Source: a virus
Length of the DNA: 64,000 bases
IMG/VR virus record: IMGVR_UViG_3300045988_033017
Coordinates: 54,699-118,698 of that record
Reading direction: 5' to 3' (one strand)
Shown: positions 2,169 through 63,683 of the stretch, piece after piece
How the letters are laid out: each line of letters opens with the position of its first letter
How positions within the stretch are numbered: position 1 is the first letter of the stretch
Notes under the pieces: generated by a model
Told to the model about the DNA's origin: nothing
What the model saw: the letters and a program-made list of their open reading frames with translations, nothing else
The model's database searches: none
Translations under genes and position numbers: made by a program

Positions 2169-2410
2169 TGAAGTTTGTAACATTCTTAAAGCAAGTATTC
2201 ACATCCCACTCTGGCATATCATCTAAGAGACTCTGCGGAGTAGTAGGGTGGTTTGTCTGCTTGGGAGTGTTAATATACTGTGCAGTAAACGTAATTCAAG
2301 CCCCATTAATGATAGACACAGTCCTGTTGTGTTGTATGGGATTGCTTGGCATAGATTCAGTAACAGGAATATGGAAGAGATTCACCAATAACGATAAATC
2401 GAATAAATAA
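2168..2410 (+). CDS. small two-TM membrane protein
   Basis: 80 aa; two hydrophobic helices (VVGWFVCLGVLIYCAV, LLCCMGLLGI); stop/start overlaps the hydrolase-domain gene. Confidence 0.5.
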   Translation: MKFVTFLKQVFTSHSGISSKRLCGVVGWFVCLGVLIYCAVNVIQAPLMIDTVLLCCMGLLGIDSVTGIWKRFTNNDKSNK

Positions 2411-5400
2411 TGAAAGTAATACCTAAACTACAACAAGGAAACACCATAGAGTCCGATAATACTAAAGTAGTTAGGCCAGAAATTCATGAACCTATTAAAG
2501 CTAAACCTAAACAGTATTCCATTGTAGATTTAGGTGGAGAACCTTCTAATGATACCAGGTCAGCTGCTGAAAGAAATAGAGACTATTGGCATCCTATTAA
2601 AGGAGCTAAAGCCAGATTCAGGGCTTCTATGTCCAATGAGACTAATCCTCTAGTTGGAATAGAAAGAACTATACTTCCTTCAGCAGCTGGTGCTGCATTA
2701 GTAACAACTCCAGCCGCTGTTGTAGGAGGAGCTTTAGGTAATATGACTGTGGATAAGCTTACCGGGGGCTGGGGTAATTGGTTAGAAGATAAGACTGGCA
2801 TTCCGTCTGAAATTGGAGTTTATACTAATCCAGGAGCTTGGTATGGTGGTGCTAAAGGATATAAGATTGGAAAGGACAAGTTAATAACTAAATCAATTAA
2901 AGGTGACGCTGACTTAGCTTGGAATCCTATTAACAAGAATCATTGGATATTTAATAAGGAAGCAAGGACTCCTTCTAATATAGCAATGGCAACAGCTAAC
3001 AGAATTACTCCATTTCTATCTAAGGTAGAGAAATTACCATTAAAAGTGGCTGCTTATAAAGCTGCCAAGAGAACTAACGGTAATGCATCAGTAAGTTTGC
3101 AAGATATAAAAACAATGCCAGCCGACTACACAGGTTCTTCAATACTAGATGGAGGAAATTTAGAAGGCAGGAATCTATTAGCTAAATATATATTTGATGA
3201 GAATCCAGTAGTTAAAAGAATGTTCTTTAATAAAGCTACTAGTAATATCAAACCTATTAGCCGTAATGAAGCAAGGAGAGGATTTAGTCATGGGGATAGA
3301 TATGAGCAGCTTTATCCTGGAGTTCATAACAGAAGATACGAAATGAGTGCAGTAGTACCCTCTGGTAGACCTCTTAAGTTTGAGAATGTTACAAAGTTTA
3401 CTGATTATGCTGGAAAGAATCCAATCAGCAAGGTTGTTGGTAAGGAGACTGAACCAGTAATGCGTATGGGAGATAAAGAGTTCATGACCTTTAGGCAGCC
3501 AGGAACTGATTATATAGGTCCTATTGATGACGTTGCCGGACACTTGGTTAAGTTTCAAATGAACAAAGGTAAATTAAGACAGACTTCTCAAGATATGTGG
3601 AAATTTAATCCTGCTGACTATGCTAAGAGGTGGAATGATTCTCCTAATACCGCTAACCAAGTCAGGCTTATTAAACAAGCTGCATTAATGGATAAAGTAG
3701 GTCGTCCTTTCATATTACAGCAATCTAATCCTATATGGATTGAAGGTAAGTCTGTTAGAAATCCGGAATTGGTAACTATGGCACATGGTGGAAGATTTGA
3801 TTTTAAGAAGTCCCCTCTGCTAAAGAAACAAGAAGAGATTAACGGTAAGAGGGACATGCGCAAGAAGTTCATCAAATCAAGTCGCCCAACCTATAAGAAG
3901 CGAATCAAGAAAGCTCAACAAGGAATGAAGTTCGTAAGTTATAATCCAGTAAGTAATCCTACAATAGATTACACTGATATTACTAATCCTATTAATCCAT
4001 TCAGCGAATATAACTTTAATACAGTTTACGATAAACCAGAGGCTTTAGTAGTACCAGTAAGAGATACTGATGAAACTGATGTAGTAGCTAATAATCCTAT
4101 AGCAGAGCCAGTAATTAATAAGTCAGTAGCTAGTAAACCTGTTACCGATAAACCTGTTACTGCCAACTCAACTTGGAAGAGTCCATATACTAACAGAAAG
4201 CAATGGTCTACAGAACTTATTAATGCCTATAAGAAGGCAGGTATTACTAATGATAATGCAATTAGAATGTTATTAGCACAAGACGCATTAGAATCTAGTT
4301 GGGGTAAGTCTGCACAAGGTAAGTACAACTTTGGCAATTTAACTACTGGTAGTTCATGGAAAGGTGATTATGTAACTGGTAATGATAAGAATGCTAAAGG
4401 TGAAGCTATTAAGCAGAAGTTTAGGTCTTATAATTCTATGGATGAGTATGCAGCAGATAAGATACAATTCTTAAAGAGACTATATGACTTTGATGAGAAT
4501 GATGATATTAATAAGTTTGTAGCTAAGCTTACTGGTTCTAATAAAGGTAAGAGAAGATATGCAGAAGCTACTAATTATGCTAAAGTACTTACTGGAGTAT
4601 ATAATGGTATTCCTAAAGGTGAGAATGGTATGATTATTAAGTATCAGAATCCAGCTCAACCTATTAAATATATGGGAGGTTACGATAAGAGAGGTAACAT
4701 AGTATTGCCAGTTACTAATGAGAATGGTATGAATAATGTAACTTTACCAGAAGTAACAGTTACTCCTAGAAATATTAATCTAGCAGGAGCTGTAGATAGA
4801 GGAAGGAGAGAAGCCGCACCTTATGTTAGTACATTATTAACAGGTGCAATATTTGGACCATTATCAGTAGCAGGTGGATATGCAGGTAATGAAGCAGTTA
4901 ATAAGATAACTAATGTAGCTAGTAATGACAAATATAAAGACTGGGCTGATATGCTCTCTAAGACTACAGGAATGAATCCGGTAGTTGCAGATTTCTTTAA
5001 CATAGGTAATTTGGCAGGTGGATTTGGAATGCGTAACTTTGGACCTAGGTTAAAGCCAGTAAAAGATATGGCTGTTGGTGGTAATAAATGGGCTAGAGCT
5101 AGAGTAATTAGTAAGGCTATAGATAAAGGGACTCCTTCAGTTGAGCCATTGCCCAATAATGTAGGTTGGGGACCTAGACAATCCATACATGTAGTACATG
5201 ATAAGAATAGTGCTAGACTCCCGAAATTATACTTTCCAGAAAGGTGGGATGCTATTCATGAAGGCGCTCCTGAAGCTGGTATATGGTATCAAGGTAAATT
5301 TGGCAATCCAAGAACAGCAGCTAATCACTCTGTTCCAGGTAAGGCAGAGAAAGCGGCTAAGGCTAGAGAGAGATTTGCCAAGAGACCTTACAGAGTAGAA

Positions 5401-6168
5401 GGTGATTTAGAGTTAGAGAGACCAATAGTTACTGTAGGTGATGTACCTAACAGAGCAGCATTAGAACGAGCAGCTGATAAGATGAGTGCTGACGGGGTAA
5501 TCTTTAATAATGTATATGATAATGGATATTCTAATAACCAAGTAATCTTTAGTCTTAGAGATAACTTGAAGAATAGCACTATGACCCATAAGCCAACTGG
5601 TAAAATAGTTACTCCGACCGAGAACAATCCATATCCTAAGATAGGAACAGCTACTATAGTAAATGGTAAGTTTGAGCCTACTGGAGATATCTTTGGAGAA
5701 ATTCTCCCCACACAGGGAACTAAGCAGGCTGTGTTTCATCATAAAACTGACCCTACTAAGGTAGTCAAAGTGTCTAAAGTTCCAGAGGAAGGATATAGAA
5801 CTGTAGATGAGTTACGTAAAGCTATTAAGATGTCTAGAGCTAGGGATGAAGTGCCTAGTGCTGTACCCACAGAACTTCAAGGTTACTTACAAGGAGAAAA
5901 GGGAATGTATCCGGTGTTTACTCAGACCAAAGTAGGGCCTATTGAAAAGGAGAATGTGCTTGACGAGTTAGCAAAGATATTTGAGTCTAAAGGATGGACT
6001 AGGATTAATGATTCGTCCTATAAGAACTCTAAAATTACAGTCGGAGACATTACTACAGAGAATGTAGGTATGCTTAACGGTAAACCAGTCATCTTTGACC
6101 CAGAAGCTGCTTACAATAAAGACATTATTAGGGTATCTAACGCTAAATTTAAGAATAAGAACAATTAA
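2410..6168 (+). CDS. large virion-associated protein with glucosaminidase (FlgJ-like) peptidoglycan hydrolase domain; tape-measure or tail lysin candidate
   Basis: 1252 aa; motif LLAQDALESSWGKSAQGKYNFGNLTTG matches the glucosaminidase family signature (E-S-x-W-G ... N-x-F-G); size and lytic domain are typical of tail-associated lysins. Confidence 0.7.
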   Translation: MKVIPKLQQGNTIESDNTKVVRPEIHEPIKAKPKQYSIVDLGGEPSNDTRSAAERNRDYWHPIKGAKARFRASMSNETNPLVGIERTILPSAAGAALVTTPAAVVGGALGNMTVDKLTGGWGNWLEDKTGIPSEIGVYTNPGAWYGGAKGYKIGKDKLITKSIKGDADLAWNPINKNHWIFNKEARTPSNIAMATANRITPFLSKVEKLPLKVAAYKAAKRTNGNASVSLQDIKTMPADYTGSSILDGGNLEGRNLLAKYIFDENPVVKRMFFNKATSNIKPISRNEARRGFSHGDRYEQLYPGVHNRRYEMSAVVPSGRPLKFENVTKFTDYAGKNPISKVVGKETEPVMRMGDKEFMTFRQPGTDYIGPIDDVAGHLVKFQMNKGKLRQTSQDMWKFNPADYAKRWNDSPNTANQVRLIKQAALMDKVGRPFILQQSNPIWIEGKSVRNPELVTMAHGGRFDFKKSPLLKKQEEINGKRDMRKKFIKSSRPTYKKRIKKAQQGMKFVSYNPVSNPTIDYTDITNPINPFSEYNFNTVYDKPEALVVPVRDTDETDVVANNPIAEPVINKSVASKPVTDKPVTANSTWKSPYTNRKQWSTELINAYKKAGITNDNAIRMLLAQDALESSWGKSAQGKYNFGNLTTGSSWKGDYVTGNDKNAKGEAIKQKFRSYNSMDEYAADKIQFLKRLYDFDENDDINKFVAKLTGSNKGKRRYAEATNYAKVLTGVYNGIPKGENGMIIKYQNPAQPIKYMGGYDKRGNIVLPVTNENGMNNVTLPEVTVTPRNINLAGAVDRGRREAAPYVSTLLTGAIFGPLSVAGGYAGNEAVNKITNVASNDKYKDWADMLSKTTGMNPVVADFFNIGNLAGGFGMRNFGPRLKPVKDMAVGGNKWARARVISKAIDKGTPSVEPLPNNVGWGPRQSIHVVHDKNSARLPKLYFPERWDAIHEGAPEAGIWYQGKFGNPRTAANHSVPGKAEKAAKARERFAKRPYRVEGDLELERPIVTVGDVPNRAALERAADKMSADGVIFNNVYDNGYSNNQVIFSLRDNLKNSTMTHKPTGKIVTPTENNPYPKIGTATIVNGKFEPTGDIFGEILPTQGTKQAVFHHKTDPTKVVKVSKVPEEGYRTVDELRKAIKMSRARDEVPSAVPTELQGYLQGEKGMYPVFTQTKVGPIEKENVLDELAKIFESKGWTRINDSSYKNSKITVGDITTENVGMLNGKPVIFDPEAAYNKDIIRVSNAKFKNKNN

Positions 6169-16721: not shown

Positions 16722-17062
16722 AACTATACTTTAACTATACACAGAACTTCATCCTTGCAGATTGTGAGGGTGAGGTTATTGATATGAGAACTGGCCAGCC
16801 TTCTGATGCCAAACTACAATCTCATCTTAATAGCTACAAAGATGAAACTACATCTAAGTGGATTCCTATTAAGGACTTAGGAGATTTGTATGATATGTCA
16901 GATAGTGATGTGACAGTTTCTGGCAGCTTAATCACGATGTCCATTGACGGACATAAGGTTACAGCTAGACATAAGGTGTCAGCAGGAGTTAATTATGTAC
17001 AACTGACTGGACACTTCCCTCGCTACTTCTGGAAAGGATTTGCTAACTTATTAACTAAGTAA
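16718..17062 (+). CDS. hypothetical protein
   Basis: ORF track 114 aa. Confidence 0.45.
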   Translation: MKLYFNYTQNFILADCEGEVIDMRTGQPSDAKLQSHLNSYKDETTSKWIPIKDLGDLYDMSDSDVTVSGSLITMSIDGHKVTARHKVSAGVNYVQLTGHFPRYFWKGFANLLTK

Positions 17063-17064
17063 CA

Positions 17065-17298
17065 ATGTTATCGCAGATACAATTTAGGAAACAGAGAATA
17101 CCATGTACTCTCAATCATCAATCTGTTACTTCTCGTGAAGGTAAATTGCTTCTTGGGTTTGGAACTAACCAGCCCATGATGCAGCAAGCCGAAAGACAAA
17201 TTGCTAAACATCAGGTTCCTTATGAGACATCTGATTTAAACGGCATGCTTTCAATCATTATCGATTATTCTATTATCAGCAGTGTAACAACAATCTAA
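17065..17298 (+). CDS. hypothetical protein
   Basis: ORF track 77 aa. Confidence 0.35.
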   Translation: MLSQIQFRKQRIPCTLNHQSVTSREGKLLLGFGTNQPMMQQAERQIAKHQVPYETSDLNGMLSIIIDYSIISSVTTI

Positions 17299-17308
17299 CC
17301 TTTAAACA

Positions 17309-17551
17309 ATGGATATAAAGAACAGCCCTATAGTTAAACATGCAATTAACAATGACAAATCTCTTCTTCCCGGAATCATCGCTTACAGCTGCAAAGAAGC
17401 TATGGTAATGGCTAAGAGAGAATGCGGTGATTTTATAGACTTCGCCAAGGAGTGGATACAGTCCTCCAAACAGCTTTGCGAAGAAGAGAACATTCCATGG
17501 GAACAGATTAGGACAGCAACTGGAGATTCTATTGATAATTATATATCATAA
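17309..17551 (+). CDS. hypothetical protein
   Basis: ORF track 80 aa. Confidence 0.4.
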   Translation: MDIKNSPIVKHAINNDKSLLPGIIAYSCKEAMVMAKRECGDFIDFAKEWIQSSKQLCEEENIPWEQIRTATGDSIDNYIS

Positions 17552-17568
17552 TCTCCTTTCCGTCTAAA

Positions 17569-17643
17569 AGAGAGTCTGATGAGTCGTTGAAAATTACGAC
17601 GAAACTTCACTGTGATTTGGCACGTCACGGTGGAGTCACTCTT
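17569..17643 (+). ncRNA. type I hammerhead self-cleaving ribozyme (predicted cleavage between 17637 and 17638, GUC|A)
   Basis: Stem I GAGAGU/ACUCUU; CUGAUGA core; stem II GUCGU-UGAAAAUU-ACGAC (G10.1-C11.1); GAAA; stem III CUUCAC...GUGGAG closing with the A15.1-U16.1 pair; all invariant core nucleotides present. Confidence 0.8.
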
Positions 17644-17661
17644 AACCAATATTAGTAATTA

Positions 17662-17832
17662 TGAAACTCACTAAGAATAAGAAAGACAATATAATAATTA
17701 GTTCTGCCATTGGAGCATTAGTAATTATTAATATCATGTTACCCACAGCTGGCGATTTTACATATGTAATCGGAGCTATAGGTATTGTTGCGGCCATAGG
17801 AGTCTGGTTCTTACCAGATTAATCAAATAATT
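17662..17832 (+). CDS. small hydrophobic membrane peptide (56 aa), not in ORF track
   Basis: ATG at 17662; MKLTKNKKDNIIISSAIGALVIINIMLPTAGDFTYVIGAIGIVAAIGVWFLPD; two TM-like segments; immediately downstream of the ribozyme. Confidence 0.4.
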
Positions 17833-17863
17833 AATAAATCAAACTCTTTAAATTTAGAAGGAA

Positions 17864-18487
17864 ATGAAGAAATTACAAGAACGCCTGAAAGCTGGTATTG
17901 ATTTCAATCCAAAGAAAGACCCATGCTATGATTCTATCGTAGAAGAAGCTGAAACTATTCTTGGGCATGTGCTCGATGCCGCTGAAGGCAAAGAAGTTCC
18001 TTACAAGAATTTCACTGTTGGTGGCGGTTATGACGAAAGGGAAGACCGTGAAATCGTCATTGTTCGTGGCGACGGTGAAGACTTGCTCGTTATGGAAGTT
18101 AAAGACGAATCTATTCGTGTTCAACCTCATGAACGTCATGCTGTCACTCTGAATGAGGATGACGAAGCTTCTGCCCGTGAAATCTTTGACATTCTTATGA
18201 AAATGAGAGACCAAAGACAAGGCTCTACATTTAAAGTCGAAGAAGGCAAAAAAGCTTTGTTTGAGTTTCTGAAGGATATATCTAAGGCTATCGGTGCTGA
18301 TGTTGAAGGTGTTGAAACGCCAGAAGAGCTATTAAAAGCTCTCAAGGCTAGAGAAGAAGGCAATGAAGGAGCCATAGAAGATTTGATGCGTGAACAACGC
18401 ATTCATCTTACTATGCACATGCTTGACTGTTCCCGTGAGAAGGCAGAGAAGATTGTAAAGAACTTTGAAGAAGCTGTGAAGCGTTAA
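17864..18487 (+). CDS. hypothetical acidic protein (locally higher GC)
   Basis: ORF track 207 aa; strongly acidic. Confidence 0.5.
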   Translation: MKKLQERLKAGIDFNPKKDPCYDSIVEEAETILGHVLDAAEGKEVPYKNFTVGGGYDEREDREIVIVRGDGEDLLVMEVKDESIRVQPHERHAVTLNEDDEASAREIFDILMKMRDQRQGSTFKVEEGKKALFEFLKDISKAIGADVEGVETPEELLKALKAREEGNEGAIEDLMREQRIHLTMHMLDCSREKAEKIVKNFEEAVKR

Positions 18488-18497
18488 TAATGCCAAG

Positions 18498-18571
18498 AGA
18501 GGATTAGTTTAATGGTAGAAGGCTAGTTGCGAACTGGCGGAGGGAGTTCGAATCTCCCATCCTCTCCAATC
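18498..18571 (+). tRNA. tRNA, anticodon loop UUGCGAA (GCG, Arg?), non-canonical D-arm
   Basis: Acceptor AGAGGAT/ATCCTCT, T-arm GGGAG-TTCGAAT-CTCCC, anticodon stem GCTAG/CTGGC; only 69-70 nt. Confidence 0.45.
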
Positions 18572-18649
18572 ATTTTAAAGTTTTGTTTTGTATTTTGAGT
18601 TTGCCCAGCCATGTTGTGAAACACACTTGGGCTTTTAATTAATAAGTGT

Positions 18650-19003
18650 ATGAATCAGAATGCAGTTAATTCTTTAAGGAATGCCAAGAGGCATATTCTT
18701 ATTAGCGATGTTGATAAGTTCAATAGCCATTTATTGTATTACATATTAAATGTTATATATGGAACACATGACCATATTAAATTAAATACGATACGTGAAA
18801 GACTTGAACGTGAGCTTAAATGGTCATTGGACGAGCATATTCCTGATAAGGATGTAATTAGAGAATGGCTTGACAATGATTACCCTCTTATATGCATAAC
18901 AGAGTTATCGTTTGACAGTTGTATTAAACTTGCCAACGATTTCCCAGATTATGAAATTGTAGTTTATAGTTGGATGAAACATGAAGGAAACTTACCATTT
19001 TAA
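18650..19003 (+). CDS. hypothetical protein
   Basis: ORF track 117 aa. Confidence 0.45.
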   Translation: MNQNAVNSLRNAKRHILISDVDKFNSHLLYYILNVIYGTHDHIKLNTIRERLERELKWSLDEHIPDKDVIREWLDNDYPLICITELSFDSCIKLANDFPDYEIVVYSWMKHEGNLPF

Positions 19004-19685
19004 ATGGAACAAATAACTCGTAAGCTGCCAAGTCCATAATGGGTACGCCACTTAATGTGGCACAGGAGGATACTGGCTGCTATATTCATTATTTTAAATG
19101 AGACTCCTGGCATGAGAGTATAATCATGCCACTTATGGGCCATACATGGAATTGATTCATGATGACTGGGTAGTAAGACGTGTAGAGTTCGTACCAACTC
19201 TTTAATAATGATACGGCAATTTAAGTGGAAACACTACTTACAGAATGGCAGCCTAAGCTGCTGGCTTAATTAGTGGACGTCATTGATTAAGTCGGGTTAA
19301 TTGGAGAGACCTAGAAACAGAAGAGGTGTGGGAAGAAGCATATAGGGCAGTCCACTTAACTTGAAAGCCAAAGGTTAGTAAAGCTGAAATCTCCACTACC
19401 TATCTATGGGTTACAAATAGAAACGTTCTCCAACGTAAATGGAGTGGTGGAGCGACCGTTCGGTCAAGCCCAGTTTGGTAGTTTATGAACAACTAAGTCG
19501 TAGCCCTACGAGGGAGACGTAATTGGTGAATTAACACTCGGCTTCTTAGTAAAACTACCTACATGCTGAACTCAACAGCTGATGTAATAAAATAGAGACA
19601 CACGTAATCTTATTGTTTAGAGTTGTGAAGACCGCGGTTCGAGTCCGCGATGGTCCACTATTATTAACGTTTAAATATCAATTTT
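19004..19685 (+). other. 680-bp non-coding structured region ending in a tRNA T-arm plus acceptor-like minihelix (19626-19661)
   Basis: No ORF; 3' end CGCGG-TTCGAGT-CCGCG then GTCCACTA, which pairs with TAGTGGAC at 19268-19275 about 390 nt upstream; shares the motif CCATAATGGGTACGCC...TGTGGCACAGGA with 15046-15170. Confidence 0.4.
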
Positions 19686-20039
19686 ATGGGATTATTTATT
19701 ATTGCAGTGATTGTTTTACTTATTTGTGTATGTCTTTCGCGAGTAGGGTCTGAAGACCTAAGAGGAGTTGCAGTGGCAGTTGAGGTTGTATTCTCAATAG
19801 CAACAGTTGGGGCAGCGATTTCATTACCATTCGCTATTACAAGGAATATTCAAATTATTGGCAAGCACGCAGTGCTCAAAGAAACATTAGAAGCTACTAA
19901 TAGGAAGAATTATTATCTTATATCTAGTGATGTCTTAAGGCTTAATTATACTATCATGAATCATAGGAACTTTGTAGACAACTTCTGGATTGGGATATGG
20001 TATGATAAGGACGTAGCTAAATTGGAACTATTAAAATGA
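19686..20039 (+). CDS. hypothetical membrane protein
   Basis: ORF track 117 aa; hydrophobic N-terminal helices. Confidence 0.45.
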   Translation: MGLFIIAVIVLLICVCLSRVGSEDLRGVAVAVEVVFSIATVGAAISLPFAITRNIQIIGKHAVLKETLEATNRKNYYLISSDVLRLNYTIMNHRNFVDNFWIGIWYDKDVAKLELLK

Positions 20040-20317
20040 AAGCAAGGTTATTAAAGAAACTTCGCAAGGAGTCAAAGAAGCTGAAATTAATAAGAGGTGA
20101 GGATTATCAATACATAGTTACTGATAGTCCTCATGACATATTAAGACCAAAGCTTGATACTTACTACAGTGGCACATACTACTGTGGTCAAGAATTATTA
20201 TTTGACGAAGATGTAATTGCATGGTTACATCAATGCAGACGTGATTGGATTCTGTCCGAGGTTAAACGAATGCGTGTACATCTGCGTAAATCTCGAATTA
20301 GAATATATAAAGAGTAA
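20036..20317 (+). CDS. hypothetical basic protein
   Basis: ORF track 93 aa. Confidence 0.4.
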   Translation: MKARLLKKLRKESKKLKLIRGEDYQYIVTDSPHDILRPKLDTYYSGTYYCGQELLFDEDVIAWLHQCRRDWILSEVKRMRVHLRKSRIRIYKE

Positions 20318-20343
20318 TTGTTTCACTAAAAGTTATTGAAATT

Positions 20344-20841
20344 ATGGGAAAGAGGTCAATATCCGACGATGACATCGTTCGGATTTTTAACACGGTAAAG
20401 GCAATGAATCCTGGGCCTTTTAAGATTACAGATGTAGTCAGGGATTTAAAGAAGAATGGCTTCCCAAGGCCAGAGAACTTCATGGCTGTTTTGCGTAAGC
20501 AGGGAGTGATTGAACCTGACGGTGCTATCTATACTAAAGGATTTATGTGGAAAGAACATGGCCCTTTGTATAAGACTAGAGTCATTGAATTGATAACTAT
20601 CAGCAGGAAAGAAATGGCTAAGATACAGAGAGATGCATATGCTAAGAGAATGGCTATTAAAGCTGGCACTTACGTAGCACCTCCTAAACCTAAGCCACAA
20701 GCTGAAATGGAAGCTGTTACAGAAGCGGAAGAAGACAAACATCTGATTCCTATTACACAGGCTGAAATGGAAGCAATCAAATTCCTGAAATCGAGAGGTT
20801 ATAGAATCACTAAATTAATAACAGTTGAACAGATAGTATGA
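20344..20841 (+). CDS. hypothetical protein
   Basis: ORF track 165 aa. Confidence 0.5.
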   Translation: MGKRSISDDDIVRIFNTVKAMNPGPFKITDVVRDLKKNGFPRPENFMAVLRKQGVIEPDGAIYTKGFMWKEHGPLYKTRVIELITISRKEMAKIQRDAYAKRMAIKAGTYVAPPKPKPQAEMEAVTEAEEDKHLIPITQAEMEAIKFLKSRGYRITKLITVEQIV

Positions 20842-21533
20842 AGTTTACAGTACAAGGGAACACGCCATTCAGTGCACATATTTGCCAATATCTATATGAT
20901 TTGGAAAGCAACTTTGCTAAGGAGAAATTGTCATTGCCACTTAGTCAGATTATAGCTCATATCTTATATGGGACTAAGAGAATCAGACTTGGTAATGAAG
21001 CTATTCCGTCCGAAGCAATCACTATTTTGGAAGAATGTATTGAAGCTAATCAGCCAATACCAGTCAATTGTATCTTCGGCAGTTCTGAATCGGAGAAAGA
21101 CTATGTTGACATTGCTGAATTTCAATCTCTTCAAACGTTGAAGGATATAAGCAGGAGAGTTGCTAAATTCTACTATCCAGGCTTGAACATAAGACTAGAT
21201 GTAGTAGGCGATTCAAAATATGTTAGTAAGGTGATGAGACTAGCAACAGTCCTAGGTGGTTTTACCATAGGCACACACCAATCAGCTATTAATGTATCAT
21301 TCGCTCACTACCGGCCAGCACACTATTATTATAAGTCTATTCCGTCTCGAAACATTCTACGAGGTGGATATGTTCCAGCTTGGGATGGTAGAGGTTATTT
21401 ATACTTAGAATCCCCACATGATATTGTGAGTATGATAACTACAGCTGACAATCCTGACATTCTTTCGACGACTGTGGTGTTAGAAGCAAACGAAGAGACG
21501 GTAGACCTTCGTGTGGACTATCTAATACCGTAA
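20838..21533 (+). CDS. hypothetical protein
   Basis: ORF track 231 aa. Confidence 0.5.
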   Translation: MKFTVQGNTPFSAHICQYLYDLESNFAKEKLSLPLSQIIAHILYGTKRIRLGNEAIPSEAITILEECIEANQPIPVNCIFGSSESEKDYVDIAEFQSLQTLKDISRRVAKFYYPGLNIRLDVVGDSKYVSKVMRLATVLGGFTIGTHQSAINVSFAHYRPAHYYYKSIPSRNILRGGYVPAWDGRGYLYLESPHDIVSMITTADNPDILSTTVVLEANEETVDLRVDYLIP

Positions 21534-21913
21534 ATCCACTATTGACGAATGGTGGTAGCAAAACTTGGTCTGAAGAACCAGTAGACATATTCCGGAGTAT
21601 GTCTATGACTTAAAGGCTATATCAAAGAGTTGAAACCTGTATCTATTCGAACAGTAGAAGTTCACCTGATTAAGCATCAGAAAACAGTAGTGCAAATCTA
21701 CTATAGATATTGTGTAAGAGAGAATCTACACGGTCTGCATTATATAATCAGCATGCAGATAGGTCACCAAGCAAACCTCTTTCCTGCCTGGTCAAGTGTG
21801 CATTACGGTCTGTAAGTGGCGAGCGGGTTAACGTATGTCCGATTGCCGTAATGCCGCTTGTTTATTGTTTAGAATAAAGAAAGACTCTCATAACAATAAA
21901 TTTAAACAAAGAG

Positions 21914-23608
21914 ATGGAAATGAAAGGAGCACAAAGGCCAAGGAGGCCTTACCCTAATGCCGCACGTCAAAGGCGGGATGAGAATAAACCTAAGTTTGTG
22001 GATAATAATCAGTTATTCATAGACCAGTTTGTTAATCTTAAGAAATGTCTTCAGCCACGTACCTACGTGCAAGTGGCTAAAGATATGTATCCTTTATGGA
22101 AAGCTAATCCATTACTATGTACTAAGTTTACTGCATATACGAGAATGATAACTCGTAAATGTAGAATAACTACCCCGGAAGGAGTTATACAACTTGATAC
22201 ACAGCAAGGAGAAGGTTTGAAGAATGAAGGTATAATGAGAATGTTGTGGTTGGCAATCTATCACAAACCCACATTCCATGCCAACATTGTTTATTTTGCA
22301 GCAGCTGGATGCTGGAAAGATTTCATTACTATGATGGCTTTAGATGTTCAACTCCATGGCTTTAAGCACAGATTGGATTGGGACTTCTTCAAGAAAGTCA
22401 TATTCGCAGGTCTTGCCAACGGTCAGACATGTGATTTAGTAAAGAAGTATCTTCCTCGTGTTCGTTCCAGTGTTGCATGTAAGACAGATGAGGCAAAAGC
22501 ACGTAACACAGTAGCCAAATTCTTGGCGGAAGGCCTTTATGGTAAACCTAAGGACGAAGGAGACTATTCAACCTATCGTAAATATAGGAAGATGAAGAAT
22601 AGCGGGAAAGCAGCCCAATGGCAGCAGTTAATCAGTCAAAAGAAATTCTTGGAAATTGATTTTGACACTGTTACTGGAAAGGCGCTGGCACAGCTAGTAG
22701 GCTCTAAATTCCTCAAACATCAAGGTCTTAAAGAGAAGTATCAGAACTGGTTGAAGAACCGTAAGAAGCCCTCTAATAGCGGATTTCTACATACTCTGTT
22801 CAAACCATACGGATTGGATAAAATTGCCGAAGAGATTCCAGAATTTATGGAAACTTCTATTAATGCAAGTTTCAATGTATTTGTTGATAATGCTAAACGC
22901 AATAGAGTAGCTCCGTTGTTGGTAGTAAGAGATATAAGTCATTCTGCTAATGGTGAGATAGAGAATAGCGAAACATCTGCTTACAGTTTGGGTAAAGCAT
23001 ATGCTTTATATCATTCTGAATTACTTCCTACAATATTCAAGAACTCCTATGCCGTGTTAGAGGATAACATGGTTCTACGTAAGTTCAAAGGTCAGAATGT
23101 CATTGAGAAATGGAAATCTGACAAAGAAGAAGCATTATGCCAGAATCCTTCTATTATTAATATAGCAGAAATGCTGTGTAAAATGAAAGAAGATTATGGT
23201 GTGGATGAAGGAGAGTTCCCTAGAGGCTGTGTGGTAATTACTAACCATACATATTTTACCAAGTTGAACAACCAAGCATTCGTGGAATTTAAGCAGAGAT
23301 TGCTTAAAGCAAATTTCAGTAAGGAATTTGTAAGAGCATTCAAAGTTATCATTTGGAGAGTTCCTTTAGCATATAAGGGAAGACCTAATGTGGCTTTGGT
23401 TCCAGGAGTGTCAAATTGCTTCTTAGTAAATGGACTTAATAATTCAACATCCTCATTTATTACTGGAGAGAAGAGGTTCCAGGTGCCTAAAACCACTAGA
23501 GACATTTTTAAGCATGCTATGAATCAAGAGTTGCTTAATATGATGATTCTAGAGAAGGATGTTGTCAAGAAGAATGCAAGCGTGCAGAAGAAGCCTGTGA
23601 AGGCCTAA
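21914..23608 (+). CDS. Ro60/TROVE-like protein with C-terminal vWA domain (Rsr-like candidate)
   Basis: 564 aa; vWA MIDAS motif in APLLVVRDISHSANG (compare human Ro60 KRFLLAVDVSASM); upstream blocks MLWLAIY and LHTLFKPY resemble Ro60 PMLFALAI and LLRLSHLKP; architecture is an N-terminal alpha region of about 330 aa followed by vWA, as in TROVE proteins. Confidence 0.5.
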   Translation: MEMKGAQRPRRPYPNAARQRRDENKPKFVDNNQLFIDQFVNLKKCLQPRTYVQVAKDMYPLWKANPLLCTKFTAYTRMITRKCRITTPEGVIQLDTQQGEGLKNEGIMRMLWLAIYHKPTFHANIVYFAAAGCWKDFITMMALDVQLHGFKHRLDWDFFKKVIFAGLANGQTCDLVKKYLPRVRSSVACKTDEAKARNTVAKFLAEGLYGKPKDEGDYSTYRKYRKMKNSGKAAQWQQLISQKKFLEIDFDTVTGKALAQLVGSKFLKHQGLKEKYQNWLKNRKKPSNSGFLHTLFKPYGLDKIAEEIPEFMETSINASFNVFVDNAKRNRVAPLLVVRDISHSANGEIENSETSAYSLGKAYALYHSELLPTIFKNSYAVLEDNMVLRKFKGQNVIEKWKSDKEEALCQNPSIINIAEMLCKMKEDYGVDEGEFPRGCVVITNHTYFTKLNNQAFVEFKQRLLKANFSKEFVRAFKVIIWRVPLAYKGRPNVALVPGVSNCFLVNGLNNSTSSFITGEKRFQVPKTTRDIFKHAMNQELLNMMILEKDVVKKNASVQKKPVKA

Positions 23609-23779
23609 GTATTTCGCGCACCGTTTATTTAATAGTTGAATTAATGTTCTGATTGGATAGAAGATAGATTTCATTATGCATGGAGAAGAGCGCATATTTG
23701 GTATAGTAATCTTTGTGCATATCTAGTAACACTAGGTGGGAATTTATTGGATGATTCCATAGGGACTGGATAGAGATAT

Positions 23780-23853
23780 AGTTCAGTGGTAGAACAGCTA
23801 AAGTCAATCTTTAGAAGAACATCAGTTCGAATCTGGTTATCTCTACACCATTT
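23780..23853 (+). tRNA. tRNA, anticodon loop GUCAAUC (CAA?) with short variable arm; identity uncertain
   Basis: Acceptor AGAGATA/TATCTCT, D-arm GTTC-AGTGGTA-GAAC, T-arm ATCAG-TTCGAAT-CTGGT; a degenerate copy of its 5' end (TGGATAGAAGATA) lies about 110 nt upstream. Confidence 0.5.
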
Positions 23854-23947
23854 TATTAATATGATTCTTTCAACATATGCAGTGTCATTTCTATCTCGAC
23901 TCATAGTCATTATTACGAGTTAAAGTATCTGCAATTGTTGAATAACT

Positions 23948-23985
23948 ACTAAGCTCATCGGTTCGAGAGAATATGTGAGCTTAGT
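23948..23985 (+). ncRNA. hairpin with T-loop-like loop CGGTTCGAGAGAATAT (tRNA T-arm mimic, copy 1)
   Basis: 11-bp stem ACTAAGCTCAT/GTGAGCTTAGT; the loop shares GGTTCGAGAGAATA with the hairpin at 24243-24270. Confidence 0.5.
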
Positions 23986-24105
23986 TTAATACCGAGCAAA
24001 CTTCTATCGTATTTAATACATATTAACTTTTACATGTGGGGAAGATTCATTACCTTTGCACTCACAATTCACAGTTAATATGGATTGTGTGATTCGGGCA
24101 CGTAA

Positions 24106-24189
24106 CCGGTAATTGGTAGCCGCGTAGACTGTAAATCTACTCCTTAATTGGACTGGAGGTTCGAGTCCTCCCGGGCCCACTCACACTGC
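24106..24189 (+). tRNA. tRNA-Tyr(GTA), type II with long variable arm
   Basis: Anticodon stem GTAGA/TCTAC, loop CTGTAAA; 14-nt variable arm; T-arm GGAGG-TTCGAGT-CCTCC; one mismatch in the acceptor stem. Confidence 0.55.
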
Positions 24190-24242
24190 GATAATTAAAT
24201 ACAATATCTGTTGAGGTCAAACTCGACAAACCCTTCTATGGT

Positions 24243-24270
24243 TCGAGAGAATAGTAGAAGTAAACTGCGG
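24243..24270 (+). ncRNA. hairpin with loop GGTTCGAGAGAATA (tRNA T-arm mimic, copy 2)
   Basis: Stem CTTCTAT/GTAGAAG; loop identical to copy 1. Confidence 0.45.
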
Positions 24271-24280
24271 GATTCGTATA

Positions 24281-24619
24281 ATGGTTATTATAACAGCCTT
24301 CCAAGCTGAAGATGACAGTTCAATTCTGTTATCCCGCTCATTATTAATAATAGATGAGATTATGAAAGAGACATCATTTAAGGCAGGTGTTATTGGTGGA
24401 TTATGTGGAGTATTTACCTTCTTGGCATTATTTGCAACCACAAGTAAAGTATCAATTAATGAGTCTGCTGCTACTAATGGAGATTATAAAATCAACAGAG
24501 TGCAGTATGAATTTATTAACGAACTAACCATTTATAAGGTATCAGGTCCTGGTATTCCAGGTATTAAGTATGTGCTTAGAGATTCCGAGAAAGGTGGTTT
24601 ATGTGTATTAAATCCATGA
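24281..24619 (+). CDS. hypothetical membrane protein
   Basis: ORF track 112 aa; TM segment VIGGLCGVFTFLALFATT. Confidence 0.4.
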   Translation: MVIITAFQAEDDSSILLSRSLLIIDEIMKETSFKAGVIGGLCGVFTFLALFATTSKVSINESAATNGDYKINRVQYEFINELTIYKVSGPGIPGIKYVLRDSEKGGLCVLNP

Positions 24620-36795: not shown

Positions 36796-37863
36796 ATGAT
36801 TAGTATTGTATTAGGAACATTCTTTGGAGACGAAGGTAAGGGACAGACAGTTCACAACTTATGTAACAAGTACATAGGTAAGCGAGAGTCTGTATTAGTA
36901 GTCAGGTTTAGTGGTGGACATCAAGTAGGACATACTGTAAAGCATGGAGACATGATGCACACCTTTAGTAACTTTGGCAGCGGAACCTTACTTGGAGTGC
37001 CGACGTATTGGTCCGAATACTGTACTGTAGACCCAATTACCTCTATGTTAGAGGGTGCAGACTTAGCTAAAATGGGAGTTCGTCCCATTGTTCAGTATCA
37101 CCCTCACTGCCAAGTTGTAATTCCCTTCGATGTCTATTCCCAAGTTAATAACGAAGAGAACTTACGACATGGTACTGTAGGTACAGGGTTTAAAGCTTGT
37201 TTGGACCGAGTTAAGGCAGGATACAGCTTAACAGTTGTAGATTGTATGAATCCTTACATACTACGTGAGAAATTAAATGCCATAGTGGATAACTATTACA
37301 ACATGTCTAGTAAATATCCCTCGATAGACCTAGACAACTGGTGTAGGTTAGCACATGCTTATTTCTTACATACAGGTGCGGTTAATGAAGATTGCTTGTT
37401 AAACTATGACAACCTAGTGTTTGAAGGTTCACAGGGAATATTGCTTGACCAAAGATTCGGCATAATGCCTTATTGCACTCCGTCTAATACAACTTCACAA
37501 AACGCTTACGAGCTGTTGCGGAAAGCAGGCATACGTAAAGAAATCCAAACTTGTTATGTAACTCGTCCTTATATAACAAGGCATGGTAACGGCCCATTTC
37601 CTTCTGGAATGTCTGTTAGGGATGTCGATGACCCTAATAATAAGTTCAACGATTTCCAGAAGACGCTTAGGGCTATTGATTTCGACAAAGACCTATTCGC
37701 ACACAGTGTACGCATTAACCGTTCATTTAAAGTTCCTTATAGGAATGAACGAACGGAGAAATTGTACGTATCACATTGGGATGAAGCATCTGACGCAGAG
37801 CAAGAAATGCTAGCGAATTTATGGATGTCAATACAACCCATGATATTCGATAAGTTAGTTTAG
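36796..37863 (+). CDS. adenylosuccinate synthetase family protein, short archaeal-type (PurA/PurZ-like)
   Basis: 355 aa; P-loop VLGTFFGDEGKGQTV and FSGGHQVGHTV match PurA GDEGKGK and GGHNAGHT; FEGSQGILLD...PSNTT matches FEGAQGTLLD...SSNTT; about 80 aa shorter than bacterial PurA, as in archaeal PurA and phage PurZ. Confidence 0.7.
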   Translation: MISIVLGTFFGDEGKGQTVHNLCNKYIGKRESVLVVRFSGGHQVGHTVKHGDMMHTFSNFGSGTLLGVPTYWSEYCTVDPITSMLEGADLAKMGVRPIVQYHPHCQVVIPFDVYSQVNNEENLRHGTVGTGFKACLDRVKAGYSLTVVDCMNPYILREKLNAIVDNYYNMSSKYPSIDLDNWCRLAHAYFLHTGAVNEDCLLNYDNLVFEGSQGILLDQRFGIMPYCTPSNTTSQNAYELLRKAGIRKEIQTCYVTRPYITRHGNGPFPSGMSVRDVDDPNNKFNDFQKTLRAIDFDKDLFAHSVRINRSFKVPYRNERTEKLYVSHWDEASDAEQEMLANLWMSIQPMIFDKLV

Positions 37864-54550: not shown

Positions 54551-54727
54551 ATGGCTTCACGTAAGAAAGGTACGGCACCTCATAAGCCGAAGAAGGTGTA
54601 TGAATTTGTTAAGTTAATGAATTGTGCAAGGTGTGGTAGAGATACTACTCACACGCTGTTCGATTATGACAACAGGCTTTATAAATGTAATGTCTGTGGG
54701 GCAGTTTATACCAAACGTGGTAAATAA
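54551..54727 (+). CDS. zinc-ribbon small protein (58 aa), not in ORF track
   Basis: ATG at 54551; MASRKKGTAPHKPKKVYEFVKLMNCARCGRDTTHTLFDYDNRLYKCNVCGAVYTKRGK; two CxxC pairs. Confidence 0.4.
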   Translation: MASRKKGTAPHKPKKVYEFVKLMNCARCGRDTTHTLFDYDNRLYKCNVCGAVYTKRGK

Positions 54728-62433: not shown

Positions 62434-63126
62434 ATGAGCCAAATTATAGGACTTGGAGGATTTTCGGGAAGTGGTAAGTCTAGTTCCCTACAGTATTTAA
62501 ACCCAAAGGAGACATTTATCATTAGCTGTACTCCTAAACAATTATCAATTCCAGGATTTAGGAAGAATTACAAGAAGCTAACTCAGGACAAAGACAAGAA
62601 CTATGTCGGAAATTGGTATTTCAGTAATGAATTTGCCAAAGTGATGAACATCATGAATGTAGTTAATGTTAAAATGCCGGAGATTAAGGTCTTAGTAATT
62701 GATGATAGTAATTATCTTCTTTCACAAGAGGTGATGTCTAGAAGTGCAGAGAAAGGATATGACAAGCATATTGACTTTGCAAAGCACTATTATGATTTAA
62801 TAATGAAAGCTATGACTCTTAGAGAGGATTTAATTGTAGTGTTCATATCTCATATTGTAAATGACGGTAACGACTATGACCCTAAATATAAGTTATTTAC
62901 TACTGGAAAGATGTTGGATAGGTCTGTTAATATAGATGGACTGTTTAATTATTTGCTGTATGCAGAGAAGATTGTAAATGATGAAGAGGTTGACTATAAA
63001 TTTAGAACAAGGTCACTTGGTCCAGATACTTGTAGAAGTACCGCAGGATGTTTCCCTGATTTATATGTTGAACCTAATATGAAGATGGTGATTGACACAA
63101 TCAATAAATTTGAATACGGAGAATGA
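62434..63126 (+). CDS. P-loop NTPase (possible nucleotide kinase or Sak4-like ATPase)
   Basis: 230 aa; IIGLGGFSGSGKSSSL Walker A; LVIDDSNY Walker B-like. Confidence 0.45.
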   Translation: MSQIIGLGGFSGSGKSSSLQYLNPKETFIISCTPKQLSIPGFRKNYKKLTQDKDKNYVGNWYFSNEFAKVMNIMNVVNVKMPEIKVLVIDDSNYLLSQEVMSRSAEKGYDKHIDFAKHYYDLIMKAMTLREDLIVVFISHIVNDGNDYDPKYKLFTTGKMLDRSVNIDGLFNYLLYAEKIVNDEEVDYKFRTRSLGPDTCRSTAGCFPDLYVEPNMKMVIDTINKFEYGE

Positions 63127-63683
63127 TAGTTAAAATGCTGTTAACTTTGGACTTTGACCCAGCTACTGGAGAGTATAAATCTCTAAAGCAGGAGATTGTC
63201 AAAGAAGAAGTAAAGACTAGAACAGTCAAGGAAGAGGTTCCAGAGACATCTGAACCGCAAATTACCCTAGACCCTAACAAGTACATACTTAATAAAGCAG
63301 CTGCCCAATTAATGGGAGTTGCTTGGGAAGATAGACTTAGTATTAAATATCAGAAAATTGACGGAATCACTTTCCCCGTTATAGGAACTGATGAAGCCTT
63401 TGGAACCAAAGGTGGAAACAAACTTACTAAGAGTCTGTCTGTCAGCTGTAGAGGTAAAGCTAATGACATGCTACGTCAGTATGGCGATACATTTACAGTA
63501 ACTACGATGAAAGGTCAAGACGACCTCTTCGTATTAGTTGGTAATGCTGAAAGGCCGGAAGAGCCTGAAGTAGATAACATAGAGGTATTAGAAGATGAAA
63601 GCGACAACATTGATTTGCCGTTAGACACAGAGATTGGATATGAGTCAGCTAAAGAGATTGACCCATTAACTTTTGAACTTTAA
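63123..63683 (+). CDS. hypothetical acidic protein
   Basis: ORF track 186 aa. Confidence 0.45.
   Translation: MIVKMLLTLDFDPATGEYKSLKQEIVKEEVKTRTVKEEVPETSEPQITLDPNKYILNKAAAQLMGVAWEDRLSIKYQKIDGITFPVIGTDEAFGTKGGNKLTKSLSVSCRGKANDMLRQYGDTFTVTTMKGQDDLFVLVGNAERPEEPEVDNIEVLEDESDNIDLPLDTEIGYESAKEIDPLTFEL

Follow-up and report, generated by a model that had tools for sequence, protein, structure and literature searches.

Gene context and anatomy of the element

The window analysed here, a stretch of 64,000 nucleotides (nt) corresponding to positions 54,699 to 118,698 of IMG/VR virus record IMGVR_UViG_3300045988_033017, carries a type I hammerhead ribozyme motif at 17570-17643 on its plus strand, where it takes up most of a 109-nt intergenic gap (17552-17660). 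Upstream of the gap lies an open reading frame (ORF) of 80 amino acids (aa; 17309-17551, +), which would form the last cistron on the 5' cleavage product. Downstream, the ORF of a hydrophobic 53-aa peptide (17661-17822, +) has its start codon 23 nt past the predicted cut and is followed by the ORF of a 207-aa acidic protein (17864-18487, +), the predicted second cistron on the 3' cleavage product, and, 11 nt after the stop of the latter, by a transfer RNA (tRNA) gene, tRNA-Arg(GCG) (18498-18567, +), identified by both ARAGORN and Rfam. The coordinates of these ORFs follow the ORF list of the window, which corrects those of the original prediction for the downstream peptide (17662-17832, 56 aa). 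All ORFs near the element are on the plus strand, and no ORF of at least 40 aa covers it on either strand, a single minus-strand ORF (17642-17797) overlapping it by 2 nt.

Read directly from the sequence, all invariant hammerhead elements are present in the order that defines type I. The 5' strand of stem I, GAGAGU (17570-17575), pairs with ACUCUU (17638-17643) to form five Watson-Crick pairs and a terminal G-U, a 6-bp helix found unchanged in the lineage of a divergent relative (L040) described below. The catalytic core strand C3-A9, CUGAUGA (17576-17582), is invariant across all relatives. Stem II and its loop (17583-17600) consist of GUCGU (17583-17587) paired with ACGAC (17596-17600) around an 8-nt loop, UGAAAAUU, and both sequence and fold place the G10.1-C11.1 pair (G17583-C17600) at the opening of the helix. 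The second core strand, GAAA (17601-17604), supplies G12, A13, A14 and A15.1 and leads into stem III with its apical loop UUGGCAC (17604-17636). The original prediction had named these helices and core strands, including the closure of stem III by the A15.1-U16.1 pair (A17604-U17636), and erred in the length of stem III: in the minimum-free-energy fold stem III has not 7 bp but 13 bp (17604-17616 with 17624-17636), with a 7-nt loop. The predicted cleavage site lies between C17 (17637) and A1.1 (17638), after a GUC triplet, a position that agrees with the hammerhead consensus and with the cut proposed originally. Immediately 5' of stem I runs an A-rich flank, UAAAA (17565-17569), whose last nucleotide, A17569, occupies position -7 from CUGAUGA and is a candidate for a tertiary contact.

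The invariant core is thus complete (C3 U4 G5 A6 N7 G8 A9; G12 A13 A14; A15.1-U16.1; position 17 not G), and sequence, fold and descriptor agree on the type I topology, with stem I as the open helix and stems II and III capped by loops. Folded without constraints, 17560-17655 adopts exactly this three-way junction as its minimum-free-energy structure (-27.4 kcal/mol, z = -2.9). The element shows the defining features of a type I hammerhead that sequence and fold can reveal, and it fails the score thresholds of Rfam.

Such an element is not expected by chance. A descriptor covering hammerhead types I, II and III on both strands (CUGANGA, stem II, GAAA, stem III with its A-U pair, UH and stem I) matches the window once, at 17570-17643. 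In 3189 simulated windows, generated by a first-order Markov process from the dinucleotide statistics of the window, a relaxed form of the descriptor yielded 41 matches (0.013 per window), none of which reached 5/4/5 bp in stems I/II/III, and the best totalled 17 bp against 24 bp in the element. The chance expectation for a hammerhead of this quality is below one in 3189 windows.

The phage that carries the element is large (~180 kb) and widespread in the human gut. Gene calls for an identical 53-aa protein exist in 263 blocks of public assemblies; several of the longest contigs with this gene measure ~180-185 kb, and one contig of 337,704 nt also exists. Shine-Dalgarno-like motifs precede 1 of the 71 plus-strand ORFs of at least 90 aa in the whole window, the leaders being A/U-rich, and this scarcity, together with the human-gut origin of all related contigs, suggests a host with Shine-Dalgarno-independent translation, such as a member of the Bacteroidota. 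A Pfam search of ten ORFs around the site returned no hits, and PHROGs gave a single family of unknown function, for a 268-aa ORF near the site. Scans of the region for sigma-70 promoters and terminators stay at background level, and no intrinsic terminator is predicted in the gap. A terminator or promoter reading of the gap was rejected on the strength of these scans and of the missing U-run after the stem III hairpin. The lack of Pfam hits and the chance-level scans likewise leave unsupported the label of early genes that had been given to the neighbouring ORFs.

Conservation in relatives and a phage type I subclass

The 30-mer formed by CUGAUGA, stem II and GAAAC in the window was used for an exact-match search of IMG/VR and is present in 26 contigs. 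About 17 of these are close relatives of the phage, and a further contig, L040 (also numbered L171), is a divergent relative. In the remaining contigs the 30-mer is found in unrelated phage contexts, where stems I and III are wholly different and a hammerhead is still formed, in most cases of type I and in three of type III (L020, L024 and L028).

The divergent relative retains the gene order of the window, with an 82-aa ORF, the hammerhead, a 55-aa hydrophobic ORF and a 213-aa acidic ORF, its proteins being 43% (80-aa vs. 82-aa), 36% (53-aa vs. 55-aa) and 34% (207-aa vs. 213-aa) identical to those of the window. Nucleotide identity between the two lineages is 46-53% in the flanking coding sequence and the rest of the gap, 96% from the 5' flank through proximal stem III (17565-17611), 100% over the 3' strand of proximal stem III, C17 and the 3' strand of stem I (17630-17643), and 50% in distal stem III and its loop. 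The L040 stem III folds as an 11-bp helix in which pairing is kept with different bases distally, three pairs having changed on both sides (G-C to A-U, U-A to C-G and G-C to U-A), and the core of the apical loop, UUGGCA (window loop 17617-17623), is retained despite the changed stem pairs. Conservation at the site tracks the needs of a ribozyme, with core and helices kept, distal stem III varying and yet pairing, and flanks diverging, a pattern of substitution indicating that the site is under purifying selection. Among the close relatives, substitutions are mostly compatible with pairing (e.g., U-G to U-A and U-A to U-G). RNAalifold reported no double changes on the lineage variants, MAFFT having gapped the 3' strand of L040, and single-sequence folds were used instead. 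Scans of IMG/VR and of metagenomes with a two-lineage protein alignment returned no orthologous loci beyond the same two lineages, and the members recovered from metagenomes all derive from human gut samples.

Two assembled contigs break at the hammerhead. One (L036/L013) stops at ~17568, and the other (L179) carries at its positions 1-45 a Nextera adapter remnant fused at window position 17639, 2 nt past the predicted cut; both ends probably reflect interrupted assembly of DNA libraries at the polymorphic stem III and not RNA ends.

Beyond its own lineage, the stem II module delineates a larger group, for which all counts of sites given here are among the matches listed. A generic pattern, TAAAA-N4-9-CTGATGAG-N8-30-CGAAAC, is found at 97 distinct sites, and 60 of them show complete type I architecture; shuffling of the 130 nt downstream lowers this number to 2 of 97. 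In its commonest form, CTGATGAGTCTTTGAAAATTAAGACGAAAC, the 30-mer is present in more than 120 IMG/VR stretches and provides 109 distinct sites with enough flank. Type I architecture is present at 101 of these, type III at 6 and neither at 2. The type I sites, which have in common just the core and this stem II 30-mer, form an unbiased sample of 101 hammerheads. Position -7 from CUGAUGA is an A in all 101, and position -6 is a purine in 97. Stem I comprises 5 bp and sometimes a sixth. Cleavage triplets are GUC (82 sites), GUU (16) and GUA (3), and stem III has a mode of 6 bp and reaches at least 10 bp in just five. The distance from the cut to the next ATG of an ORF of at least 40 codons has a median of 39 nt and an interquartile range of 26-44.

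The window element conforms to this scheme, with A17569 at -7, G17570 at -6, a 6-bp stem I, a GUC triplet and a distance from cut to start codon (23 nt) inside the observed range; its 13-bp stem III is the longest seen in the subclass. Its loop II, UGAAAAUU, matches the subclass consensus and, together with the proximal stem II pairs, agrees with the dominant phage module, GUCUUUGAAAAUUAAGAC, apart from a compensatory change of U-A to G-C. These sequence features assign the element to a subclass of phage type I hammerheads that carries the stem II module GUCNUUGAAAAUUANGAC, is abundant and was defined in this analysis. The invariant A at -7 and the fixed length of stem I point to one specific tertiary contact, and no covariation is seen linking loop II with stem I.

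A covariance model (R1) provides an independent assessment of this membership. R1 derives from an alignment (A1) of 31 subclass hammerheads that all come from unrelated phage contigs and include neither the window lineage nor L040. Run with filters off, it gives window positions 17564-17643 a score of 62.3 bits (E about 1e-15), against 12.6 bits for the runner-up in the window. In A1, 96% of cells are paired on the hammerhead structure, compared with 30-49% in slid controls, and changes on both sides occur in 11 of 16 pairs, counts that are inflated by the choice of A1 members with a pairing descriptor, eight of them via the window's own 30-mer. The recovery of type I architecture from the generic pattern and from CTGATGAGTCTTTGAAAATTAAGACGAAAC (60/97 vs. 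2/97 shuffled, and 101/109) offers less circular checks. The helices are backed by covariation in related sequences, in A1 and in the distal stem III of L040. The original identification of a canonical type I hammerhead in this gap, whose cleavage would part the upstream cistron from those downstream, is accordingly borne out by anatomy, chance statistics, the independent model and conservation in a divergent relative.

No further hammerhead copies were found in the window with the type I/II/III descriptor or with R1 with filters off. The second-best R1 hit (63376-63445, +; 12.6 bits, E 0.42) was rejected: it shows CUGAUGA, a 7-bp hairpin and GAAAC, lies inside an ORF (63123-63683) without a stem I and looks like chance. 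In metagenome sequences, 51-nt matches to R1 are filter or envelope artefacts, the full hammerhead being carried.

Several features of other subclass members were observed along the way. Type I hammerheads occur serially in single phage contigs, with ~15 in L118, six in L078 and four in L149, none of which are reported by Rfam at gathering thresholds, and many of the L118 copies have an AGGAGG-like ribosome-binding site within a few nucleotides 3'. In seven loci (L025, L035, L037, L099, L116, L121 and L148) the complement of the stem I 3' strand recurs just 3' of that strand, as in CGGCUU-AAA-AAGCCG, and the 3' product of such hammerheads could refold after cleavage into a 5'-terminal hairpin; the pattern was noted by eye, and the window element is without it. 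In L087 a subclass hammerhead is followed ~60-150 nt downstream by a tRNA-like sequence (containing GGTTCGAATCC) in place of an ORF start, and some members may therefore precede tRNAs. Loci found through the module also hold other RNAs: twister-P5 ribozymes in L025 (2300-2362 and 3306-3384), a pistol ribozyme in L099 (11753-11820), and RAGATH-14 RNAs adjoining tRNA arrays in L046 (270-441) and L047 (8752-8924).

Probable cis-cleavage of a polycistronic transcript and its alternatives

The best-supported and most likely reading of the locus is constitutive cis-cleavage of a polycistronic phage transcript, and it is highly probable that 17570-17643 is a functional type I hammerhead processing this mRNA in cis between two same-strand genes. 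During transcription of the polycistronic RNA, stems I, II and III would fold locally, and the core would catalyse transesterification 3' of C17637. The type I topology would leave the ribozyme on the upstream RNA, whose 3' end would retain nearly all of it (stem II and the 13-bp stem III) and bear a 2',3'-cyclic phosphate. The downstream RNA would start with a 5'-hydroxyl at A17638 and keep six ribozyme nucleotides only, the 3' strand of stem I. Its first nucleotides past the predicted cut are ACUCUUAACCAAUAUUAGUAAUUAUG, and it has essentially no structure (-2.2 kcal/mol, not better than shuffled sequences). An open, A/U-rich leader of 23 nt would precede the ORF of the 53-aa peptide, with that of the 207-aa protein next. 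Cleavage would uncouple the fates of upstream and downstream cistrons, as the original prediction had proposed for the small membrane peptide and the acidic protein. It would also give the downstream message a defined, open 5' end, which could help translation in a phage nearly devoid of Shine-Dalgarno motifs. Across the subclass the cut keeps a consistent distance from the next start codon, which speaks for the downstream gene as the partner under constraint.

We infer that the ribozyme is catalytic in vivo, that the genes on either side are co-transcribed and that cleavage affects stability and translation. Prophage hammerheads flank genes, cleave polycistronic RNAs of roughly 2 kb in vitro and cleave in E. 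coli, and processing of long phage transcripts has been proposed for them (PMC3088659), although the biological purpose of such hammerheads is still regarded as unproven (PMC6765202).

Several observations weigh against a functional ribozyme at the site. A search of the window with Rfam 15 reports no hammerhead at gathering thresholds or at E ≤ 1, the gathering-threshold calls being tRNAs, a transfer-messenger RNA (tmRNA) and RAGATH-34. In a scan at E ≤ 10 the best local score is that of RAGATH-1-hammerhead, at 23.8 bits (cut-off 56.3), and Hammerhead_3, locally the best-scoring member of the Rfam hammerhead clan CL00010 (Hammerhead_1, Hammerhead_3 and related families), gives a partial match over model positions 6-49 at 21.3 bits (cut-off 48.5). 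The commonest variant among the close relatives has one A-C mismatch in distal stem III, orthologous conservation and covariation derive from two lineages and one comparison, and the A1 pair counts are inflated as stated above. Fast cleavage at physiological Mg2+ would presuppose a tertiary contact of stem I with stem II or loop II. Finally, in the minimum-free-energy fold of a 251-nt context the 3' strand of stem I pairs instead with AAGAG (17484-17488), a predicted pairing through which the ribozyme could misfold; the ensemble frequency of this competing structure is just 0.0001.

The Rfam result carries less weight than its scores suggest. A covariance score below threshold had been named at the outset as grounds for refutation, and the scores at the site do fall below. 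As a test it is invalid, because the same thresholds miss phage type I hammerheads elsewhere: on 15 other phage loci rich in descriptor-defined type I hammerheads, Rfam at gathering thresholds reported no hammerhead, and the same search did find one pistol, two twister-P5 ribozymes and RAGATH-14 RNAs. The negative at the site is a sensitivity gap, arising from short, low-information models with high cut-offs, and no refutation.

The suggestion that processing here is regulated fares less well than constitutive cleavage. It would make the element a conditional ribozyme, switched by a phage or host protein acting on stem III and its UUGGCA loop or by alternative pairing, with the 3' strand of stem I sequestered and processing limited to a certain stage of infection. 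The element carries no aptamer-like extra domain, and what speaks for regulation is the conserved apical loop of stem III, whose core is kept in the divergent lineage though the underlying pairs have changed, the length of stem III, at the extreme of the listed subclass sites, and the competing pairing of AAGAG with CUCUU in the 251-nt fold. Loop conservation involves two lineages and 6 nt, and could arise by chance at roughly the 5% level; the competing segment sits in coding sequence that is ~46% identical in L040 and belongs to a structure of very low frequency; and the short, plain stem III hairpins of most subclass members indicate that the basic design is constitutive. A conditional element is hence unlikely.

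Somewhat less likely still is a main role in forming and protecting the 3' end of the upstream message, as a substitute for a terminator, with the folded ribozyme and its cyclic phosphate serving as a 3' cap against exonucleases and any downstream effect incidental or even negative. The type I topology, which leaves stems II and III, with the 13-bp hairpin, on the upstream fragment, and the lack of a predicted intrinsic terminator in the gap fit this role. The tight distance from cut to start codon among the listed subclass sites does not, nor does the placement of cuts directly ahead of AGGAGG sites in some phages (L118), although 3'-end formation and mRNA processing are not mutually exclusive. 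That the site is an inactive or chance hammerhead-like motif, or a structure conserved for other reasons without self-cleavage (a protein-binding hairpin cluster or a DNA-level signal), is very improbable, for although its Rfam scores lie under gathering thresholds and some hammerhead-like sequences have been published as inactive (PMC3088659, Figure S7 legend), the published inactive examples mostly show core deviations and here every core nucleotide is canonical, chance accounts for fewer than one such element in 3189 windows, the independent model returns 62.3 bits, and conservation follows ribozyme requirements.

Cis-cleavage could also be one part of a more elaborate arrangement, which, taken jointly in all its parts, we consider unlikely. 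Here the hammerhead and tRNA-Arg(GCG) would act together as ribozyme punctuation: the tRNA would provide an RNase P processing site bounding the 3' end of the released mRNA, and cuts by the hammerhead at 17637/17638 and by RNase P at 18498 would free a discrete two-gene message encoding the 53-aa membrane peptide and the acidic protein. Its 5'-hydroxyl and open, Shine-Dalgarno-less leader would be needed for efficient translation in a Bacteroidota-type host, and the long stem III with its UUGGCA loop would be a protein-binding handle timing the cut. If true, this would assign a concrete, testable function to a bacterial or phage hammerhead, a question still open in the field.

Relation to known ribozymes and neighbouring features

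The element is of an already known kind, phage and prophage hammerheads having been known since 2011. It shares with the type I hammerheads described in phages and prophages (PMC3088659) the catalytic core, the three-way junction and the open stem I, as well as a position between genes in phage gene blocks of a single strand and a proposed role in cutting transcripts into gene-length mRNAs. It differs from them in being present as a single copy in 64 kb, where theirs are several and flank genes, in its unusually long 13-bp stem III without an evident loop-loop pseudoknot, in its short, fixed stem I of 5-6 bp with the invariant A at -7, and in being missed by Rfam gathering thresholds.

Among Rfam families, RAGATH-1 (RF03152) resembles the element in its type I order, an A-rich stretch 5' of stem I (consensus UAUAAAAU), a GUC triplet and a 5-bp stem I. 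Its model combines a minimal stem II with an upstream hairpin, whereas the stem II of the element has its full 5 bp and an 8-nt loop. A RAGATH-1 identity was rejected in view of this full-length stem II, the want of a conserved upstream hairpin and the score of 23.8 bits. A hairpin seen by eye upstream of the element (GGAGAUU...AAUCUCC, ~17523-17557) was likewise rejected as part of the ribozyme, being unconserved in L040. In Hammerhead_3 (RF00008), the consensus of core and stem II/loop II (GuCccUGAaA..uAgGaC) resembles that of the element, GUCGUUGAAAAUUACGAC, and the same 30-mer module is found in a few type III phage hammerheads (the 6 of 109 listed sites), but the open helix of the window element is stem I and not stem III.

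A synthetic counterpart exists in RiboJ, an insulator in which a cis-cleaving hammerhead placed ahead of a coding region strips the upstream RNA context and yields a defined leader with a 5'-hydroxyl. RiboJ derives by engineering from the hammerhead of a satellite RNA, and the mRNA that it releases still carries ribozyme sequence and a hairpin, whereas the natural type I layout of the window would leave 6 nt only. Theta (minimal hepatitis delta virus-like) ribozymes offer a further parallel, being small self-cleaving ribozymes of tRNA-rich human-gut phage genomes with a supposed role in RNA processing (PMC10879173). They belong to another class and are tRNA-adjacent; the window element precedes protein-coding genes, with the nearest tRNA ~860 nt downstream.

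A single copy, strong conservation and a widespread human-gut phage as carrier make this clean case well suited to testing the effect of a hammerhead on neighbouring genes. The locus also exposes an annotation gap, in that Rfam gathering thresholds miss both the site and an abundant subclass with more than 120 IMG/VR sites for one exact 30-mer, and the putative tertiary contact indicated by the invariant A at -7 and the fixed length of stem I is open to mutation or structure determination.

Other features of the window were recorded in the course of the analysis. The RAGATH motifs owe their name to an association with genes that lie near twister and hammerhead ribozymes, and a full-length RAGATH-34 RNA lies ~3.9 kb downstream of the hammerhead (21536-21643, +; 119 bits, cut-off 60.7). 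It just precedes a 564-aa ORF (21914-23608, +) with no Pfam match and no PDB sequence match, whose only hit is phrog_850, annotated as "RNA-binding protein." Some 30 tRNA genes, all on the plus strand and with tRNA-Arg(GCG) as the first, are interspersed among ORFs across ~34 kb (18498-52173). The tmRNA (19137-19660, +) scores 60 bits in Rfam (cut-off 47), was not called by ARAGORN in a scan of 17000-24500 and, at 524 nt against a model of 374 positions, may carry a large insertion. In a megablast comparison with the phage collection, the sole match was one of 303 nt in the tmRNA region, to a faecal phage fragment without annotation. A 355-aa ORF (36796-37863, +) matches the first ~277 of 416 positions of the Pfam profile Adenylsucc_synt (E 9e-35), and this short PurA-like enzyme might be PurZ, which acts in the 2-aminoadenine genome pathway. 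A 1252-aa ORF (2410-6168, +), with a glucosaminidase domain (E 2e-9) and a weak match to Kinase-PolyVal, resembles a phage polyvalent protein.

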